A stretch of DNA of 24,000 nt from Promethearchaeum sp. Lineage in GTDB: Archaea; Asgardarchaeota; Lokiarchaeia; Sigyniarchaeales; Promethearchaeaceae. Made by a program: the position numbers and the translations under genes. The stretch spans positions 6,158 through 30,157 of the forward strand of contig JAUWOE010000009.1 of NCBI GenBank assembly GCA_030612265.1, read 5' to 3'. The notes below the pieces were generated by a model that saw only the letters and a program-made list of their open reading frames with translations, ran no database searches and had not been told where the DNA came from. Below, piece after piece: positions 2 to 9,800 of the stretch; position 1 is the first letter of the stretch; each line of letters starts with the position of its first letter.

Positions 2-544
2 AAAAGGTTTTATCGATTTCTTCATATCCCGATTCAGTCTGGAAGTAATAAAATATTAAAAAAAATGAAAAGAAATTATACGATTGAAGAAGCTGAAATA
101 ATTTTATTAAAATTGAAGGAATATGATAAATTGTTTAGAATTGGAACGGATATAATTGTTGGATTTCCTAGTGAATCAGAAGAAGATTTTGATCTATCAG
201 AAAATTTCATAAAAAAATGGAAACCTAGTATTTTAAATATATCAAAATATTCCGTAAGACCAAATACTGAAGCAAAAAAATATCATCAATTAAATTCCCA
301 AATTATAAAAAAGAGATCTAAGAAATTATCTATAGTTTTTTCTAATTACTCAGAAATTTTAAACAAAAAATGGGATGGATGGGAGGGTGATGTATTTTTT
401 AATGAACATCGAGAAAAGGTTCAATTTCCATATATGGGAAGAAATTTATATTACGTACCAGTATTAAGTAAAAATGCTGTTGTTGGACAAACAAAGAATA
501 TTAAAATTACTGGATATTTGAATCATTCCCTTATAGGTTATTAG
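2..544 (+). CDS. Radical-SAM methylthiotransferase (MiaB/MtaB, CDKAL1-like family), C-terminal part with TRAM-like domain; 5' end lies outside the window
   Basis: The frame is open from the window edge. Translation from nt 2 reads KRFYRFLHIPIQSGSNKILKKMKRNYT, matching the H-x-P-x-QSGS...L..M.R motif of this family. It continues ...IGTDIIVGFPSESEEDF and ends in a TRAM-like segment (WEGDVFF...GRNLYYVPV...GQTKNIKITG). Confidence 0.8.
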   Translation, partial: KRFYRFLHIPIQSGSNKILKKMKRNYTIEEAEIILLKLKEYDKLFRIGTDIIVGFPSESEEDFDLSENFIKKWKPSILNISKYSVRPNTEAKKYHQLNSQIIKKRSKKLSIVFSNYSEILNKKWDGWEGDVFFNEHREKVQFPYMGRNLYYVPVLSKNAVVGQTKNIKITGYLNHSLIGY

Positions 545-1559
545 TATTAAATAAAGGTTTAAGAATTTTTACATAATGGTCTCGAATTGAATATTCTGCT
601 ATTTTCATTGCATTTGAAGCAATTTTTTGAGTTAAAATTGATTTTGTTTCATAATCTTTTGCCAATAATTTATCTGCACAATAAACTGTTGCACTTGCTA
701 GAATAAAAGGGTTCCATGACCGTTTCCTTCCTTTATTAATGGTTTTTATTATAAATTTGCATTTATTTTCTAAAAGGTTTTTATAAACTATCATAGTCCA
801 AAGAGATTTTTTCTTTTGCATCCTATTTATAACTTCAGGTGAGTTTACAATCGAATTGATAAATCTTGCGATGAAATCTTCACTTTTATGAGGATGGTTT
901 TTCTTTTTTAGAAATTTCTGATATTCAATACTGTCTCTTATAATTAATCTTGGGCTAACTCTATGGCCCAACATGGTAAATATTTTGCATATTTCACGAA
1001 TACTAACTGGAGCATTAGAGCAAAATTCTCTCGAAGCATAAAAAATACAAAAACCAATTAATGAGATATGATTTCGAATGGATGGAGCTTTATGCTTAAT
1101 TGATTGATAATAATAGGCTGCATGATTCTTTACTATTGAAGATAGCCTTAAATATTTAGTTATATTATTTAATATTCTTAAAATTCTATAATCTGTTTCA
1201 TGATTTTTTATTTTTATTGGAAAAGTGTATGTTTTTAATTTTCTGAATTTCTTTTGATAATTTGATGAAATTACTTTATGTTTATAATCACTAAATACTT
1301 TTGTGGAGAAATAATCAATATGACTTCCTAGAGTACAAATATTATCAACAGTTTTTCCAATAGAAACAAATTGATCCCCTGTCGATAAATCTGAATTAAT
1401 TGTGTCATTAAATTGAAAGCTATCTACAAATAAAACAGAATCAATAACTAAACCGCAATTTACACAAACTCTTTCATGTCCATTTTGAATAAAATTAGCT
1501 TTACATTCTGGACAAATGTTTGAATTTTTCTGATTAATAAAATATTGGGATTGAAACAA
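531..1559 (-). CDS. tfb: Transcription initiation factor TFB (TFIIB-like), divergent paralogue
   Basis: N-terminal Zn ribbon CPEC-x12-CVNC followed by GLVIDS. Cyclin-fold-like repeats are present (NHAAYYYQSI...ISLIGFCIFYASREF...SIREICKIF). The only possible start is TTG at 1559, because an in-frame TGA lies three codons upstream and no later start precedes the Zn ribbon. Confidence 0.75.
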   Translation of the reverse strand: MFQSQYFINQKNSNICPECKANFIQNGHERVCVNCGLVIDSVLFVDSFQFNDTINSDLSTGDQFVSIGKTVDNICTLGSHIDYFSTKVFSDYKHKVISSNYQKKFRKLKTYTFPIKIKNHETDYRILRILNNITKYLRLSSIVKNHAAYYYQSIKHKAPSIRNHISLIGFCIFYASREFCSNAPVSIREICKIFTMLGHRVSPRLIIRDSIEYQKFLKKKNHPHKSEDFIARFINSIVNSPEVINRMQKKKSLWTMIVYKNLLENKCKFIIKTINKGRKRSWNPFILASATVYCADKLLAKDYETKSILTQKIASNAMKIAEYSIRDHYVKILKPLFNTNNL

Positions 1560-1754: not shown

Positions 1755-2918
1755 ATGGTTCAAAAAAGACCAACTATTTTAGACTTTCAAATTGAAAATC
1801 ATCTTATATACTATAAATTTCCAAAATTTTATGTGGGATTTTATTCTATTCGCATATATGCTACCAATATTATGGATTCTTTAACTAAAATATTAAAAAA
1901 AACCTTAAACAAAGAAAATATTTTTGGGGTAATTGATATATGCGGAGAAAATACCTTTTTATTTATTAAATTTAAAAATAAATCTATAAAAGCAATTTTG
2001 AATTATAAAAAAAGCATCTTAATGAGTTTATCTACAATAAAAAAAAAATTTTTTAAATTGCTGGCGGAGAAAGAATTGGAAAACTCTTTTTTTTATTTTG
2101 TTGATTTTAGTCAAATGAAGAATGTCCATATTTCAATTAATAAAAAAGAAAAATATATCTCCTTAATTGATTATAAAATTGCCATAGAACAAAATATTTT
2201 CAAATTTAAAGTTGAAAATTCCTTTTTTAAAGAAAATCGGATAAGACAATTAATATTGTTTTTTAGAACTATGAAAATCAAAGGATATTTCTTATTTTCT
2301 TATAAATCTGATGATTTTTTAAAATTATCTTTCATTTTAATATCAAATTCTTATGAAAAATTGATAAATTTTCTAAATTTTAATAAATCATTACCATTAA
2401 AATCGCATTTGAAATTAGTGGAAATCTCCAGATATGATTTTATTAATTTAATAAAAAGGAAACAACTTTCTAATTCATCTTTAATAGAAAATAGTGATTT
2501 TTATCATTATTTAAAAATTATTAATTCTACCAAGCAAATAAAACAAGATTTAAAGAAAAACGCAAATTTTGAAAAAATAAATAAAAAATCCCTTAGAAAA
2601 AAAATTATTACTATTTTAAACGAATTGTTAATTAGCTTTACAATTAACTCAAAATCTGATATTTTAATTAATCCCTTTAAAATACGAGTTTTAATTTTAG
2701 AAAATAATTTCAATTTGTTATTGAACTATTTTAGAAATCAAGAATATTACATAAATCATACAATTTTATTTTTTTCGATTAAAGATGAACAAAAAGCATT
2801 AATAGAAAACACGAGCATTAAGAAATTACAAAGAATTGAAATTTTTTCTAAAGATGATTTAGATTCATTTAGGTTTTTTTTAAATCAACGTAAAAATTTA
2901 GTATTAACCAATTTTTGA
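1755..2918 (+). CDS. Hypothetical protein (387 aa, Lys/Asn/Phe/Ile-rich), no recognisable domain
   Basis: Long ATG-initiated ORF in an otherwise stop-rich AT-rich context, divergent from tfb. I recognise no motifs. Confidence 0.5.
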   Translation: MVQKRPTILDFQIENHLIYYKFPKFYVGFYSIRIYATNIMDSLTKILKKTLNKENIFGVIDICGENTFLFIKFKNKSIKAILNYKKSILMSLSTIKKKFFKLLAEKELENSFFYFVDFSQMKNVHISINKKEKYISLIDYKIAIEQNIFKFKVENSFFKENRIRQLILFFRTMKIKGYFLFSYKSDDFLKLSFILISNSYEKLINFLNFNKSLPLKSHLKLVEISRYDFINLIKRKQLSNSSLIENSDFYHYLKIINSTKQIKQDLKKNANFEKINKKSLRKKIITILNELLISFTINSKSDILINPFKIRVLILENNFNLLLNYFRNQEYYINHTILFFSIKDEQKALIENTSIKKLQRIEIFSKDDLDSFRFFLNQRKNLVLTNF

Positions 2919-2989
2919 GCAATAAAAAAGGATGAAGGTTTTTTTATATTTTATGATAAAAAATAAAAACTTTCAAGAATTTATAGAAA

Positions 2990-3265
2990 TGATCGTGGGG
3001 ATTTAGGCAATCCCTTGAAGCCCTATATTGGGTGGAGCCATGCCTATAATGGACTGAAAAAACTTTGAAAATTTATGAATTAAATAAAAGAAATTATTTT
3101 ACTAGTCTATGAAACATTCGCTTTTTGAGATGGATTAGGTTAAAGCTTTTCCTGTAGAGAAAAAGTAATTAACTTAGAGGACAAAATCGGCTAGGCCAGG
3201 GATGGAGCAACCGTAAGTTCACTAATTCATGCACAATTAGTGGGGTGCTGAGACCCAAAATAATT
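2990..3265 (+). ncRNA. Signal recognition particle RNA (archaeal 7S/SRP RNA); S-domain core is secure, outer boundaries are uncertain
   Basis: This is a GC-rich island in AT-rich DNA.
- 3188-3213 reads CGGCT-AGG-CCA-GGGA-TGG-AGCA-ACCG. That is the universal SRP helix-8 apex: GNRA tetraloop GGGA, CCA/TGG closing pairs, the AGG/AGCA symmetric loop, and a CGG(C)T/ACCG stem.
- A long hairpin at 3135-3177 (TTAGGTTAA...TTAACTTAG) sits where helix 6 belongs.
- GGUGCUGA at 3244-3251 resembles the conserved helix-5 3' strand.
- The 5' hairpins (GGGAT-ttaGGCa-ATCCC and CCAT-GCCtata-ATGG) have complementary GGC/GCC loops, as in an Alu domain. Confidence 0.65.
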
Positions 3266-3378: not shown

Positions 3379-3861
3379 ATGAAAAATATCGAAGTTGATC
3401 CAATTAATTTCCAATTAAAAATAAAAAATTCACAACTCCCATTAGTTTTACTACGACCTTATGATCTATTTGAATTTCATTTGTTATTGCACACAAATAT
3501 AGAAGATTCATTATATAAAATTGGGAGTTTAATTGGAGATTTCCTTTGGACATCTTTAGAACCAAAATTAAAAAAGAAGAATTTTGAATCACAGATAAAA
3601 CATCTTATAGATTTATTGTATCAATTAGGTTTCGGAAAATTATTTTTTACGAAAAAAAAAGAAATTATTAATATTTCTATCAATTCCCTCATACTATGGA
3701 TTAAATATCCCTCAGATATTTCATTGAAATCAATTGCCAATTTCTATTTTGGTCTTATTCAATATTTTTTTAAAGAGAATAAAATAATTGATAAGGAAAA
3801 ATATGATATAAATCATGAGAAGAATAACTTTAAATTATATTTCCATATAAAGAAAGGATGA
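3379..3861 (+). CDS. V4R-like domain protein (cysteine-less variant)
   Basis: The pattern matches V4R: PLVLLRPYDLFEFHLLL...SLYKIGSLIGDFLWTSL...LIDLLYQLGFGKLFF...INISINS. It lacks the C-terminal Cys triad. Its stop overlaps the next start (ATGA at 3858-3861). Confidence 0.55.
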   Translation: MKNIEVDPINFQLKIKNSQLPLVLLRPYDLFEFHLLLHTNIEDSLYKIGSLIGDFLWTSLEPKLKKKNFESQIKHLIDLLYQLGFGKLFFTKKKEIINISINSLILWIKYPSDISLKSIANFYFGLIQYFFKENKIIDKEKYDINHEKNNFKLYFHIKKG

Positions 3862-4343
3862 AAATGAAAGAACTTATAAATAAAGATGACGGTTTATCTT
3901 TTTGTGAAGAAAATATTATCCTGGTCCCTGTGGATATCATTTCCTCCCTTGGATCAATTTTTAATACTGGCTCAAAACCTATTATTCAATATTTAGGAAA
4001 GAATTTTGGTAGATTTCTTGCTGAAAAATGTGATTCTCAATATGAAACTAAAGATCTTAAAAAATTTTCAAATAATTTTCTTAAAATGGCAAGTATAACA
4101 GGTTGGGGAAAGTTTACATTAATATTTTTGAATGATGAAGAAATAACAATAAAATTGTACAATAATATCGCAACTTTTAATAAACAAGAGAAAAAATTTA
4201 TCTGTTCTTATATTCTTGGACTTCTAAAAGGTTTCGGAGAATATATAATGAAAAATGTAAATGTATTAGAAACAAAGTGTTCAATTGAGAACCCTAACAA
4301 TCAATATTGTGAATTTCTGATAAAAAAAAAAATTAAACTATAG
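3858..4343 (+). CDS. V4R (4-vinyl reductase / TRAPP Bet3-like) domain protein
   Basis: Motifs: IILVPVDIISSLGSIF...IIQYLGKNFGRFLAEK...ITGWGKFTLIF...ITIKLYNN. The V4R Cys pattern is present as C116...ETKC141-x9-C151EF (CSYILGLLKGFGEY...ETKCSIENPNNQYCEFLI). Confidence 0.7.
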   Translation: MKMKELINKDDGLSFCEENIILVPVDIISSLGSIFNTGSKPIIQYLGKNFGRFLAEKCDSQYETKDLKKFSNNFLKMASITGWGKFTLIFLNDEEITIKLYNNIATFNKQEKKFICSYILGLLKGFGEYIMKNVNVLETKCSIENPNNQYCEFLIKKKIKL

Positions 4344-4350
4344 ATTTATT

Positions 4351-4725
4351 TTATATTAAATCCATTAATGTAAAAAAGAAATTTATTATTAATAACGTTA
4401 AACTCAAAATTTTAAAAATTTTTACTTGAATTTCGATTTCAATGATTATTCCAAGATATTCTAAAGAAACTTCAGTAATTCCTTGGAAATTTAGCATTAA
4501 ATCTAAAAAATAATTTATATTATATGAAATTTCTTCACTAATTTGAAAAATTAAAAGGGTACATCCAATTTCAATCATAAAGATCATCATTTTTGGAAGA
4601 AAATCTGGTAAAATTAGAATAAAAAAACTTAAAATCACTATTATTAAGAAAACAGATGTGATTAAAACGATTTTTTTGTCAGTTTCAAAAAAAAATATTG
4701 ATAGAAATTCAATATTTTGAATCAA
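4351..4725 (-). CDS. Small hydrophobic (about 3 TM) protein, last gene of the GTPase operon
   Basis: TTG start lies 6 nt after the mglA-like stop, with AGGT upstream. Hydrophobic segments include IVLITSVFLIIVILSFFILIL, MMIFMIEIGCTLLIF and ILSLTLLIINFFFTL. No homology recognised. Confidence 0.4.
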   Translation of the reverse strand: MIQNIEFLSIFFFETDKKIVLITSVFLIIVILSFFILILPDFLPKMMIFMIEIGCTLLIFQISEEISYNINYFLDLMLNFQGITEVSLEYLGIIIEIEIQVKIFKILSLTLLIINFFFTLMDLI

Positions 4726-4731
4726 TTTAAT

Positions 4732-5304
4732 CTACCTGATGATAATAGATGGAAAGATTAATGATATTATACTTTTGAATGTTTCTGTCACTCCTTTTCC
4801 TGAGAGTGCAATTGTTTCAATTATTTGGGATGTATTAAATTTATTTAACTCGTATTTGTTTAACACTTCATTAATATCTATAATATCGGGTAAATCTCTT
4901 TTATTTAAAGATAATACTATCGGGATTTTAAAAACATTTTCTGCAAAATAATAATTTAATTCTTTCCAAGATTGATAGTTATCATCAAAATATTTTCTTT
5001 GGGAATCTATAACAAAAACAATCCCATCAGTTCCAGATAAAGTAGCAGGTCTTGTAGATGCATAAAAATCTTGCCCAGTTGCAGAATATAATAAAATTTT
5101 TACCATCCATTCACCACCAATCATTTGTAATGTACCAAAATCAAAAAATAAAGTCCTCCCGGTTGTAGTTTCTATGGATGTAAGTTCTCCATTTTTTCCA
5201 AATTTATTAAATAAGCTTTTCAAACTAGTTGTTTTCCCTGATAAAGCACAGCCATAATATACAATTTTAATCTGGATCAATTTTGTTTTATAATTAACAA
5301 TCAT
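4732..5304 (-). CDS. mglA: MglA-family small Ras-like GTPase
   Basis: - N-terminus and G1: NYKTKLIQIKIVYYGCALSGKTT (compare MglA INY...KIVYYGPGLSGKTT).
- Switch I: GRTLFFDFG.
- G3: LLYSATGQDFY, with Ser in place of the canonical Asp as in MglA TVPGQ.
- G4: NKRDL. G5: ALSGKG.
- I prefer the ATG at 5304, which lies 4 nt after the upstream stop with GGGGT upstream. The ORF-track start at 5328 is a TTG. Confidence 0.85.
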   Translation of the reverse strand: MIVNYKTKLIQIKIVYYGCALSGKTTSLKSLFNKFGKNGELTSIETTTGRTLFFDFGTLQMIGGEWMVKILLYSATGQDFYASTRPATLSGTDGIVFVIDSQRKYFDDNYQSWKELNYYFAENVFKIPIVLSLNKRDLPDIIDINEVLNKYELNKFNTSQIIETIALSGKGVTETFKSIISLIFPSIIIR

Positions 5305-5308
5305 TTTT

Positions 5309-6208
5309 TTAACCCCATAGACTTTCAAACGTATCTGTAAAATTTGATGATTTTTTTGAATTCAAAAATGTCTTAAAATCCATATTCCATTCTTGCATTA
5401 TAAAATTTAAAATTCTTTCAATTGAAGATTGATTATATGCGATTGTAGAAAATAAAGTCTTACTAGAAATGTTTGTAGGATAACCTAAAACTTCTAAATT
5501 CTTCATACGAGATAAAATATTCAAAGTTCTTTTAGATGCCAAATAAAAATCCGATATTTCCTTTTTTATGATGTTTTCCTTTAATTCCATCTCTTCAAAA
5601 TAAAAATTCATTATATTTTCGTATTGTTCATTTAAAATTTTTTTTGTATTTATCCTTTTAGAGATAATTCTTTTCATTTTTTCAATTGCGACTTCCGTAT
5701 GATTTATTGCATTCTGATATAATGATTTTTCAAATGAAATATCCAATTTAATACCGTTATTCCCTTCTTTTATAGGTTTTAAAGTATTTTTATGAATATT
5801 GATGAGTAAGAATTGAGAACTTGCCCTATTTAAAACCTTAAATAATTTATTTAGAGTAGGTCTATTTTCGACATTATTAGTGCATCCAATAATCCAAAAA
5901 TTAAAATTGCTAAATAAGCTAATTGCTTTTTCTAAAGCAAAAGGATAACAGAGAAAAACATTTCTCTGAATTTCCATGTCATACTCTTCAGATTCAAGTA
6001 AATTATTATAATCATCAAGATCAACAAAATCTGTATAAAATATCATGATATTGCGGAATGATATTAGATTTGTTAATCCATTTATTATATTTTCCACATC
6101 TTCTTCATTTGAACTAATGATCACTATTGGGATCCTATCTAAAAGACAATGTAAGATTAATGCGATGTCTTCATTTTTTGAGCTTGTAAACAATTCAATT
6201 AGGTTCAT
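5309..6208 (-). CDS. Hypothetical protein between the Roadblock and MglA genes; N-terminal alpha/beta half with core-DENN-like motifs and a helical C-terminal half (assignment tentative)
   Basis: ATG with AAGGAGA Shine-Dalgarno upstream. It is tightly packed in the operon (17 nt after the Roadblock gene, 4 nt before mglA). ALILHCLLDRIPIVIISSNEEDVENIINGLTNLI resembles the DENN-core consensus LL-E-R-R-hhhh-SS-x-L-S-x-L-x(6)-L; YPFAL and FWIIGC follow later. Confidence 0.7.
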   Translation of the reverse strand: MNLIELFTSSKNEDIALILHCLLDRIPIVIISSNEEDVENIINGLTNLISFRNIMIFYTDFVDLDDYNNLLESEEYDMEIQRNVFLCYPFALEKAISLFSNFNFWIIGCTNNVENRPTLNKLFKVLNRASSQFLLINIHKNTLKPIKEGNNGIKLDISFEKSLYQNAINHTEVAIEKMKRIISKRINTKKILNEQYENIMNFYFEEMELKENIIKKEISDFYLASKRTLNILSRMKNLEVLGYPTNISSKTLFSTIAYNQSSIERILNFIMQEWNMDFKTFLNSKKSSNFTDTFESLWG

Positions 6209-6225
6209 ATAAATTATCTCCTTAT

Positions 6226-7230
6226 TTAAAAAATTAATTCTGTAAACATCTTCTCTAAATTTAGATTTTCAGGATTTATTTCGTACTTTCGAGCTTCTTC
6301 CAATACAGTAGTAATTTTTTTACAGTATCTTGGTATGATTAACCGAAGTAAGCCTAGTTTCTGCCTCCCTTTACCAATTTCAATGGAAAATATATTTGAA
6401 TCAACCTTATTAATAAATTGAAATTTATCAACACATTCTAATAGGATTGAATTCACATGCATTTTTTTTAATAACCAAGCACATTTATCTGCTGTTTTAA
6501 AAAGTGAATACCCCATTGTAGCTTCAGAATCTAATTTATTTTGATCTATTTTTGATTGAGGATAGCTAGAAACAACAAAACCACCCTCAATTGAAATGTA
6601 AGATTTAATTAGGTCAAGGGTTTGATTACCAAGATCCCGTAGAATGTTATCTAATTCCAAATATATTCTTGGAGGGATATTTAAGGAAAATAATTGTATT
6701 TTTTCATTTTTTTTTATATCTTCTCTAACATCTGAGGCTCCGATAATTTCATCTATGTTTTTTTTTGAAAAATGCCGTAAAGGTGGTTTAAATGTTTCCC
6801 CAGAAAGAATCAGGGATTTTTTTATTTCAATTAAACTATTACGAGTTTTTAGAAATATCCCTCCTAAATTTATCATATTTTGAGCAGAGATAGCAATAAA
6901 GAAATCATTATCATTTCCTTGTAAACCCTGTGCTCGAATAATTTTGTTTAGAGTTGGACTCCCGTAATTCTTCAGTGGAAATAATAAAATTTTTCCTTTA
7001 TTCCCTTCAATTAAAATATATTTTAAATTTTGCTTATGAAGTTCAATTCCGCAATTATAAATAGCAGATGTAGCTGCAGATATACTGAAAATCTCATCTT
7101 TTGAAAACCAAATTCCAGTGTAATGAATTGGATTTCCATCTCTTTGCGTTAAAACAACATTTTCAACGCCTCTTGTAGCTTTTATTTTCTCAAGATTTCT
7201 CTTTACTTCATCTTGGAGTTTAATTATAAT
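6226..7230 (-). CDS. Tandem Roadblock/LC7 (MglB-like) protein; the true start is upstream of the ATG at 6876
   Basis: - The ORF-track product (6226-6876) contains a Roadblock domain (ISIEGGFVVSS...ATMGYSLFKTADKCAWLL...ILLECVDKFQFINKV...).
- The same frame stays open to 7230 and encodes a second complete Roadblock domain: IIIKLQDEVKRNLEKIKATRGVENVVLTQRDGNPIHYTG...EIFSISAATSAIYNCG...YILIEGNKGKILLFPL...FFIAISAQNMINLGG.
- The ATG at 6876 therefore falls inside that domain.
- GGGTGA (SD-like) and TTTAAATA (TATA-like) lie upstream of 7230. Confidence 0.7.
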   Translation of the reverse strand: MIIKLQDEVKRNLEKIKATRGVENVVLTQRDGNPIHYTGIWFSKDEIFSISAATSAIYNCGIELHKQNLKYILIEGNKGKILLFPLKNYGSPTLNKIIRAQGLQGNDNDFFIAISAQNMINLGGIFLKTRNSLIEIKKSLILSGETFKPPLRHFSKKNIDEIIGASDVREDIKKNEKIQLFSLNIPPRIYLELDNILRDLGNQTLDLIKSYISIEGGFVVSSYPQSKIDQNKLDSEATMGYSLFKTADKCAWLLKKMHVNSILLECVDKFQFINKVDSNIFSIEIGKGRQKLGLLRLIIPRYCKKITTVLEEARKYEINPENLNLEKMFTELIF

Positions 7231-7588
7231 TCACCCATTCGATTAATTGGTTAAAAAACTCCATAATTATATTTAAACATCTAAAAAAAAAACAAAAATT
7301 CTGAATTATGTTGAAAATTTAGATTATTTATTCCAAACAATAGATAAATGTGACGTTTTTAACTATATTTTAAAAATTTAAGCCTAAATTGAAACTTAAA
7401 GAAATAAAGTCTTATTTTAAATATCAACATTAATAAATTTTTTCCTTCTTATTCCTTCAGTTTGCAAAGATATTTCTAAAAATTTAAATGATATTGCGTT
7501 CCAATAATTTTATTTACTTTTCAATTGAAATATCAAAATTTAATAAGGAAGAAAACGCACTGACTTTTACACTCTAAGATTCGATATG

Positions 7589-7856: not shown

Positions 7857-9350
<1,494 letters not shown>

Positions 9351-9463
9351 ACAACATTTCTATGGGTTTAATGCCCATAGATCTTCTTTTTATTTTTTTT
9401 AGTTCTTTTCATATTTAATAAGATATAAATTTTCATTAGTATTTTCTATTTTTTTAATATATT

Positions 9464-9536
9464 GGGCCCATGGCTCAGTTGGTAGAGCACCTGACTTGCA
9501 CTCAGGGGGTCGGGGATTCAAATTCCCCTGGGTCCA
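9464..9536 (+). tRNA. tRNA-Ala (UGC)
   Basis: 73-nt cloverleaf: acceptor GGGCCCA/TGGGTCC with the G3:U70 Ala identity pair, anticodon loop CTTGCAC, T-loop TTCAAAT, discriminator A. No CCA is encoded. Confidence 0.95.
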
Positions 9537-9800
9537 TTAATTATAATATGATCCATTTCAAAAATAAGAAATATTAAGTAAGTGAGTTTTTGAAAATATG
9601 TACCAAAATTTTTTAATTATTTCAGAGAGTCTTAGAATTAGTATGTTTTTTCCACTTAAAATATCTGATTGGGATATGGAACAGTATAAATTAATACTGC
9701 AGCTATTTAGCATAGTTTTAATAGTTGTTATGTTGGTTTATATCGCTTTATCATCACGTGATAATGAATAAATGAATAAATAATTAAATTATTAGATTTA

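Follow-up and report, generated by a model that had tools for sequence, protein, structure and literature searches.

The locus described here lies in a window of 24,000 nucleotides (nt) from Promethearchaeum sp. (GenBank assembly GCA_030612265.1, contig JAUWOE010000009.1, positions 6,158 to 30,157 of the forward strand), which is the whole stretch of DNA that was analysed and which is very AT-rich (~19-32% GC outside the rRNA gene). Three genes of its minus strand follow one another almost without interruption and encode a tandem Roadblock protein, a protein of 299 amino acids (aa) that resembles the DENN and folliculin C-terminal domains, and a small GTPase of the MglA family. These three genes recur together in Asgard archaea as a tightly coupled operon whose products, on balance, probably work as a GTPase switch. 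In the window, the trio is followed by a gene for a small transmembrane (TM) protein. The Roadblock, 299-aa, GTPase and TM genes are separated from one another by 17, 4 and 6 nt, and the TM gene converges on a pair of plus-strand genes of the V4R type, with 7 nt between the two stop codons (4344-4350). The open reading frame (ORF) map reproduced exactly the gene order, the gaps and the distance between stops given in a preliminary description of the window (Table 1). The upper boundary proposed there, an ATG at 7238, turned out to belong to another frame, which reads ATG GGT GAA TTA TAA. Comparison with the orthologues of the cultured archaeon Promethearchaeum syntrophicum MK-D1 gave ratios of nonsynonymous to synonymous substitution rates (dN/dS) of 0.08 for the Roadblock gene, 0.14 for the 299-aa gene, 0.07 for the GTPase gene, 0.40 for the TM gene and 0.36 for the first V4R gene. 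Because these values are low (0.07-0.40), the genes are real and not chance ORFs, and all three genes of the trio are under strong purifying selection (0.07-0.14).

Table 1. Features at the locus, with positions counted from the first letter of the window
Feature	Position	Strand	Basis or remark
V4R1	3379-3861	+	ORF map
V4R2	3858-4343	+	ORF map; shares 4 nt with the end of V4R1
TM protein, 124 aa	4351-4725	-	ORF map; start TTG
MglA-family GTPase, 190 aa	4732-5304	-	ORF map; start ATG
299-aa DENN/folliculin-C-like protein	5309-6208	-	ORF map
Tandem Roadblock gene	6226-7230 (open frame)	-	Probable start ATT 7224 (332 aa) or ATA 7227
Shine-Dalgarno-like GGGTGA	7231-7236	-	5′ of the non-canonical Roadblock start
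Putative archaeal TATA box TTTAAATATA	7268-7277	-	Read off the sequence; ~50 nt upstream of the Roadblock start
Archaeal 16S rRNA	7857-9351		Divergent from the Roadblock gene
tRNA-Ala	9463-9537		Near the 16S rRNA

The GTPase was identified by a phmmer search of the PDB, in which it matched the MglA proteins of Myxococcus xanthus and Thermus thermophilus with E values of 1e-32 to 4e-32, far ahead of the next-best matches, Arf1 (1.3e-7) and Thor-Rab (3e-7). Alignment of the sequences located the P-loop at G18-T25 and the remaining motifs at R50-T51, S74-A-T-G-Q78 and N134-K-R-D. The G3 motif S74-A-T-G-Q78 aligns with T-V-P-G-Q of M. xanthus, so that the canonical Asp is replaced by Ser and the catalytic Gln is kept, and an Asp-less G3 with Gln is common to all the trio GTPases examined. 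Further, G49-R50-T51 aligns with D-R-T of M. xanthus, which places an intrinsic arginine beside the Thr of G2; it is an intrinsic arginine that defines the group-1 MglA proteins (PMC4316618). By these motifs the protein is assigned to the MglA family as a group-1-like member, in agreement with the family named in the preliminary description. The GTPase is a single domain of 190 aa, and because the C-terminal Roadblock domain is missing it is not a Rag. The Rag component of the logic that had been proposed for the locus is not supported.

In the protein encoded by the first gene of the trio, the Pfam profile Robl_LC7 (PF03259) matched residues 11-89, within domain 1, with a score of 27.4 bits (cutoff 23), and no Pfam profile matched domain 2. 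An AlphaFold2 model built on an alignment of 26 homologues (predicted local distance difference test score, pLDDT, 77; predicted template modelling score, pTM, 0.77) contains an alpha-beta-beta-alpha-beta-beta-beta-alpha unit twice, at residues ~3-141 and ~185-313, joined by a poorly modelled linker and followed by a C-terminal helix (323-331). Foldseek searches with this model retrieved MglB, Asgard Roadblock and LAMTOR chains with template modelling (TM) scores of 0.8-0.88 on the target and E values of 5e-6 to 3e-4; the MglB matches scored 0.85-0.88, the aligned domain not being given for each match. The homologues form 389 clusters of ~333 aa, most of which carry a precomputed PF03259 assignment. 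The tandem Roadblock protein read from the sequence at the outset was thus supported by the Pfam match on domain 1 together with the two-unit topology and the Foldseek matches. It is the predicted structure that argues for the duplication, and on this model the protein is a fused MglB-like pseudo-dimer; the pTM of 0.77 over the whole chain suggests that the two domains adopt a defined arrangement. The linker between them contains the tetrapeptide FKPP (residues 145-148; window 6781-6792), which is invariant and lies in a low-confidence, probably disordered segment.

The AlphaFold2 model of the 299-aa protein (pLDDT 88.9, pTM 0.86) consists of an alpha/beta domain (~1-150), a helical domain (~158-275) and a disordered tail. 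The modelled chain begins with the alpha/beta domain and includes no longin or Roadblock unit. When the model was compared with the PDB by Foldseek, the top three matches were DENND1B/DENND1A chains (E 5.6e-3 to 1.1e-2, probability 1.0, root-mean-square deviation 5.8-6.9 Å), and FLCN (TM score 0.51 on the target) and C9orf72 were also listed. The relatives of the protein pointed in the same direction. Folliculin_C was the only recurring Pfam family among the 52 members scanned, with three matches, the best of which reached 20.2 bits where the cutoff is 27 (E 4.8e-4). In two relatives the match runs from start to start, residues 5-62 of the protein lying on positions 4-62 of the profile (P0039, with the E value of 4.8e-4, and P0044). 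No NCBIfam family matched the window protein. The family is small, with 33 clusters at 90% identity, all of them Asgard-labelled where named; at 50% identity it has 100 representatives, almost every one of which is ~300 aa long or a fragment. From the predicted fold and the matches of its relatives, the protein is regarded with moderate confidence as DENN/folliculin-C-like and longin-less, which gives substance to the earlier suggestion that it was possibly DENN-like. Across the 52 diverse members of the family, R52 is the sole invariant residue. At the C-terminus, the sequence DTFESLWG (within residues 285-299; window 5309-5353) is near-invariant in the family and falls in a low-confidence segment; this peptide and the FKPP of the Roadblock linker look like docking peptides.

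Conservation of the gene order was assessed by scanning one genome per species for the 299-aa family, which yielded 23 loci, including those of MK-D1 (84% identity in the 299-aa protein), Lokiarchaeum ossiferum and Harpocratesius repetitus. In 23 of the 23 loci, the genes for the tandem Roadblock protein, the 299-aa protein and MglA follow one another in this order on a single strand. The same order was kept in three distant loci with wholly different flanks (L024, L030 and L031), where identity to the window has dropped to 24-29% for the 299-aa protein, 29-39% for the Roadblock protein and 41-53% for MglA and where the trio genes overlap or abut (overlaps of 4-7 nt). These data support the existence of a conserved, tightly coupled three-gene operon, and the synteny holds for this three-gene core.

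The fourth gene has a narrower distribution. Its product shows three hydropathy peaks (residues 19-37, 42-64 and 106-124) and is 65% identical to that of MK-D1. L001-L005 and L023 each carry a TM gene that agrees with it in position and length, L006-L022 have none, and unrelated small TM ORFs follow two of the distant trios. The TM gene is a poorly conserved, lineage-restricted fourth gene of the operon, confined to the Promethearchaeum/Lokiarchaeum/Harpocratesius group. Of the membrane component put forward in the preliminary description there remains, then, a three-TM gene that does belong to the operon, conserved in a single lineage group and with a dN/dS of 0.40. In L006-L022 the place of the TM gene is taken by a small gene together with a gene for another MglA-like GTPase, which is 228 aa long and is encoded on the opposite strand ~0.5-0.7 kb downstream of the trio (L006 3645-4331, minus strand, and the same position in L007-L022). 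In this paralogue the switch-I Arg is changed to Ser, the G3 motif reads TVAGQ and the C-terminus is extended by ~40 aa.

The first gene of the operon appears to begin at a non-canonical codon. Its frame is closed upstream by an in-frame TGA (7231-7233) and is open from 7230, and along this ORF there is no ATG, GTG or TTG before 6876, the first of them, which lies inside domain 1. The TGA that closes the frame is part of the motif GGGTGA, which is complementary to the 3′ end of the 16S rRNA of the same window (...GGATCACCTCC), and ATT 7224 and ATA 7227 are located 6 and 3 nt past this motif (7236-7231). GGTGA is kept at the same site in MK-D1, L. ossiferum and L003, with ATC, ATA and ATA, respectively, 6 nt further on. 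In MK-D1 the arrangement is GGTGA-N9-ATG, that is, an ATG one codon downstream of the position of the ATT in the window; in L. ossiferum and L003, a canonical start is missing for 85-118 codons and the ATA follows GGTGA by 6 nt. The non-canonical-start segments correspond to window 7222-7236 (minus strand), L002 8972-8985 and L003 333-346. To judge by these sequences, the gene probably extends over 6226-7224/7230 and initiates at a near-cognate AUU or AUA. Two other explanations were considered and rejected. Initiation at the internal ATG 6876 would take place without a Shine-Dalgarno motif and would remove Roadblock domain 1. A frameshift or recoding event that accounted for the absent start was discarded as well: the TGA belongs to the conserved Shine-Dalgarno motif and three other genomes share the layout. 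The public gene calls for the Roadblock proteins of relatives are shortened to 216, 232 and 266 aa (P0151, P0139 and P0133), and it is the non-canonical start that explains annotations as short as the first of these. Further upstream, the putative TATA box is situated in the intergenic region common to the Roadblock gene and the divergent 16S rRNA gene, and the block gtttaaatataattat is identical in MK-D1; a promoter role of TTTAAATATA is putative.

The three gene kinds had been encountered together before. Liu, Makarova et al. (bioRxiv 10.1101/2020.10.19.343400; Nature 2021) report that a Roadblock-superfamily protein is encoded together with a small GTPase and a DENN protein in an operon "conserved in most Asgard archaea"; they say explicitly that this GTPase is no Rag and propose a regulatory role of the FLCN/Ragulator kind. 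The trio of the window is very probably the same operon; the same three gene kinds make up a conserved putative operon of Asgard archaea in both cases. The statement in the preliminary description that no account of the arrangement was known is consequently wrong for the core. The two descriptions differ in several respects. For Liu et al. the GTPase is Rab-like and its Roadblock neighbour resembles LAMTOR1, whereas here the former falls in the MglA family with an intrinsic Arg and the latter is a tandem that matches MglB best; in addition, the DENN-like protein of the window has no longin domain. What is new with respect to Liu et al. is the MglA type of the GTPase, the fused MglB-like Roadblock protein, the absence of a longin from the DENN-like protein and the non-canonical start, the structural points among these being predictions. 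MglA-like GTPases in MK-D1 were also treated by Tran et al., according to whom the GTPase genes of MK-D1 do not as a rule share operons with Roadblock genes; the trio locus is not described there. The literature searched contained no experiments or biochemistry on the trio, which is a module known from prediction.

Among the closest known systems is the mglB-mglA pair of bacteria and archaea (M. xanthus, T. thermophilus; PDB 3T12, 6IZW, 6H5B). The GTPases belong to one family, are ~40% identical over 184 residues and share the Arg finger beside the G2 Thr, the Asp-less G3 and the catalytic Gln, and in both cases a Roadblock-fold partner is encoded upstream in the operon. MglB, however, is a single Roadblock domain that forms a homodimer, whereas the window encodes two diverged domains in one chain and a 299-aa DENN-like protein between the two genes; the partners RomR/RomX, MglC and Frz are not found in the neighbourhood of the window trio. 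The eukaryotic DENN and folliculin proteins (DENND1B-Rab35, FLCN-FNIP, C9orf72-SMCR8) resemble the 299-aa protein in so far as its predicted alpha/beta core and the all-helical domain after it would correspond to the cDENN+dDENN lobe, in the register of the N-terminal 60 residues of two relatives with the start of Folliculin_C and in their link to a small GTPase and to Roadblock/longin-type domains. They differ in that the 299-aa chain has no N-terminal longin (uDENN), the Roadblock domains being placed on a separate protein, in that its sequence similarity stays below the Pfam thresholds and in that the client GTPase is of the MglA type and not a Rab, Rag or Arf. With Ragulator-Rag and TRAPP the trio would have in common a platform of Roadblock or longin dimers that holds and regulates a small GTPase, and TRAPP includes Bet3-family subunits, which are related to V4R; the window, in contrast, has neither a pentameric scaffold nor a longin heterodimer core, and the adjacency of its V4R genes is not conserved. 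According to a proposal of Zhang et al. (2012), the longins of DENN modules derive from MglB-like GTPase-activating proteins (GAPs) of MglA-like GTPases, a picture that the trio fits as a split arrangement. The trio bears on how the eukaryotic regulators of small GTPases (DENN, folliculin and the longin GAPs and exchange factors for guanine nucleotides, GEFs) arose in eukaryogenesis. An MglA-type GTPase, an MglB-like double Roadblock protein and a DENN-like protein are encoded next to one another in an archaeon closely related to the cultured MK-D1, which has the orthologous operon, and the refinements made here turn the operon into a concrete three-protein system open to in vitro testing.

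The interpretation given most credence, as somewhat better than an even guess, is that the conserved unit is the three-gene Asgard operon, in which a gene for a longin-less DENN/folliculin-C-like protein joins those for a tandem Roadblock protein and an MglA-type GTPase, and that it works as a GTPase switch. By analogy with the MglB homodimer, to which a single MglA is bound in the solved complexes, the two Roadblock domains would fold back on each other into a hard-wired asymmetric counterpart that binds one MglA. This platform would most likely act as the GAP of the GTPase, repositioning the intrinsic R50 and Q78, because the GTPase retains both of these residues of group-1 MglA. The DENN-like protein would supply in trans the cDENN/dDENN half of a regulator that in eukaryotes is one polypeptide (longin+DENN+dDENN), and would most likely join the Roadblock-GTPase complex as an exchange or nucleotide-state-selective partner, as eukaryotic analogues suggest. 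Its C-terminal DTFESLWG peptide may be a docking element. In the Promethearchaeum/Lokiarchaeum group, the small three-TM protein may tether the switch to the membrane.

Several observations weigh against this interpretation or against parts of it. An hhalign comparison of domain 1 with domain 2 of the Roadblock protein was not significant (E 0.26). The Foldseek matches of the 299-aa model reach E values of only ~1e-2 and a TM score of 0.29 on the query, with AAA+ and clamp-loader folds close behind. The window protein itself has no Pfam match, so that by sequence the DENN assignment is sub-threshold, and a phmmer search and two profile searches of the PDB with this protein returned chance matches of the ferritin, TNIK-kinase and Fis1 types and no others. 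Some paralogues of the 299-aa family lack an adjacent Roadblock gene, an adjacent GTPase gene or both. Finally, the distribution of GAP and GEF roles between the two partners is an analogy, and recent work on M. xanthus indicates that MglB itself can lean to GAP or GEF behaviour.

This last point leads to the alternative that survives best, in which the 299-aa protein is an effector or adaptor recruited by MglA-GTP, the Roadblock protein is the sole GAP, as in bacterial mglBA, and the likeness to DENN is structural and nothing else. Since the MglB of bacteria can by itself show GAP as well as GEF-like behaviour, a separate GEF is unneeded; the evidence for DENN is sub-threshold, the longin lobe of the eukaryotic DENN GEFs is missing and the invariant C-terminal peptide resembles a docking motif for some other partner. 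Against these arguments, every trio has the 299-aa gene in the middle, joined by coupled junctions to the Roadblock gene on one side and to the GTPase gene on the other, a position typical of partners in a stoichiometric complex, and all the hints from structure and sequence favour the FLCN/DENN class of regulators. An effector role is accordingly considered a minority option, with roughly one chance in a handful. The reading of the trio as a GTPase switch also admits a more far-reaching version, which is offered tentatively and as improbable rather than probable. The trio would be a free-standing prokaryotic DENN/folliculin module in which an MglB-derived Roadblock pseudo-dimer and a separate cDENN/dDENN protein control MglA, with GAP and GEF in one operon; the eukaryotic longin-DENN-dDENN proteins would have arisen by the fusion of such neighbours, and in Promethearchaeum-like Lokiarchaeia the TM protein would tether the switch to the membrane. 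Divergent transcription from the 16S rRNA promoter region might, on this version, tie expression of the trio to growth.

The preliminary description had gone beyond the trio and had treated all six genes as parts of one system. According to this proposal, the six genes encode a membrane-associated multi-subunit switch for which the V4R pair provides a TRAPP-like GEF platform. The genes are physically adjacent, with their convergent stops 7 nt apart, V4R2 is a plausible V4R domain and MK-D1 has the same arrangement. V4R2 scored 16.9 bits with the Pfam V4R profile (PF02830), under the cutoff of 31, and the same profile, and no other family, matched seven of nine members of the V4R2 family at sub-cutoff E values of ~0.004-0.007. 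Its best curated-family match was to the C-terminal V4R region of the NCBIfam family MsvR, a redox-sensing regulator of methanogens (E 4.4e-6). V4R1 matched no Pfam family, and its homologues form only 15 clusters, all at least 67% identical; in UniRef the MK-D1 orthologue, DSAG12_00678, bears the name of a V4R domain protein. The two V4R proteins align collinearly with a BLASTP E value of 0.1 and an hhalign E value of 0.005 (probability 7%). To judge from these comparisons, V4R1 is probably a degenerate V4R paralogue, translationally coupled to V4R2 and confined to a genus-level lineage. Conserved or invariant cysteines occur in V4R2 (Cys116, Cys141 and Cys151) and V4R1 has none; the sequences suggest a ligand or redox sensor with a degenerate partner.

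The distribution of these genes speaks against their participation in the switch. They lie on the opposite strand, and among the window and the 23 loci the pair adjoins the trio only in the window and MK-D1, being absent from this position in the other 22 loci and in the distant trios L024, L030 and L031. No V4R homologue was detected within the 10-kb flanks of the trio in L002-L005 and L023, and in L006-L022 a lone V4R2 homologue is found ~8 kb away, beyond TFB. V4R1 is limited to the close relatives mentioned above, and Asgard V4R/TRAPPC3 proteins are likely ligand binders according to Tran et al., which is to be set beside the match of V4R2 to the V4R domain of MsvR. On the preferred interpretation, the V4R genes are neighbours peculiar to this lineage, unrelated to the conserved module and not members of it. 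The TRAPP-like logic of six genes also lacks a longin/TRAPP core, and the six-gene system is now held to be improbable.

About equally improbable, if not slightly more so, is the view of the 299-aa protein as a degenerate P-loop or AAA+-like protein of the clamp-loader type, with an alpha/beta domain and a helical lid, unrelated to DENN. Foldseek does list clamp-loader, RFC, ORC and secretion-ATPase chains with E values of 1e-2 to 1e-1, but their alignments have root-mean-square deviations of 16-24 Å, as compared with 5.8-6.9 Å for DENND1A/B, and the sequence contains neither a Walker A nor a Walker B motif. Folliculin_C is, besides, the sole Pfam match to recur in the family, and cross-matches of this kind are expected from the description of cDENN itself as a Rossmann-like beta-alpha sandwich (Zhang et al., 2012). 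The weakest alternative, that the adjacency is synteny inherited in a stable region beside the 16S rRNA gene without functional coupling, may draw on the syntenic thermosome-HerA-YchF-16S-tRNA-trio-...-TFB stretch of Lokiarchaeial genomes and is already largely refuted, to the point of being hardly credible, by the distant loci L024, L030 and L031, which keep the order and the overlaps of the trio with every flanking gene different and the rRNA absent.

Some further observations concern the surroundings of the operon. A 16S rRNA gene divergent from the Roadblock gene and ~0.35-0.65 kb away from it was present in all six of the long Lokiarchaeial loci (L001, L002, L004, L005, L018 and L021), and no rRNA was nearby in the distant trios L024 and L030. 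The 16S rRNA and tRNA-Ala genes of the window (7857-9537) are not accompanied by a 23S rRNA gene. In 17 of the 23 loci the contig breaks off upstream of the Roadblock gene at a distance below 1 kb, which is consistent with assembly breaks at rRNA. The tRNA adjoining the 16S gene measures 102-103 nt in L018 (6742-6844) and L021 (6818-6919), against 73 nt in the window, a length that suggests an intron. On the other side of the V4R pair, the window encodes a 387-aa protein (1755-2918, plus strand) with no Pfam or NCBIfam match, next to a divergent gene for a TFIIB-like zinc-ribbon protein (531-1559, minus strand), and both genes are kept in the Promethearchaeum/Lokiarchaeum/Harpocratesius loci. 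A TFB-like gene lies downstream of the trio in 20 of the 23 loci, which are nearly all the loci long enough to include it.

The wider family showed additional variation. Near-identical trio proteins (L008, L013 and L014; P0196 and P0237) occur in metagenome-assembled genomes that bear the names Hermodarchaeota, Thorarchaeota, Hodarchaeota, Odinarchaeota and even Patescibacteria; some of these labels must be wrong, and they are therefore unfit for judging the distribution of the module. In L031, the GTPase gene is followed by a gene for an extra protein of 138 aa (2764-3180), which by eye resembles a single Roadblock domain. In L028 (1376-2646), a DENN-like gene precedes two GTPase genes, one of the MglA type and the other Ras-like with a canonical DxxGQ, and in L032 (1126-2744) two DENN-like paralogues are arranged in tandem.

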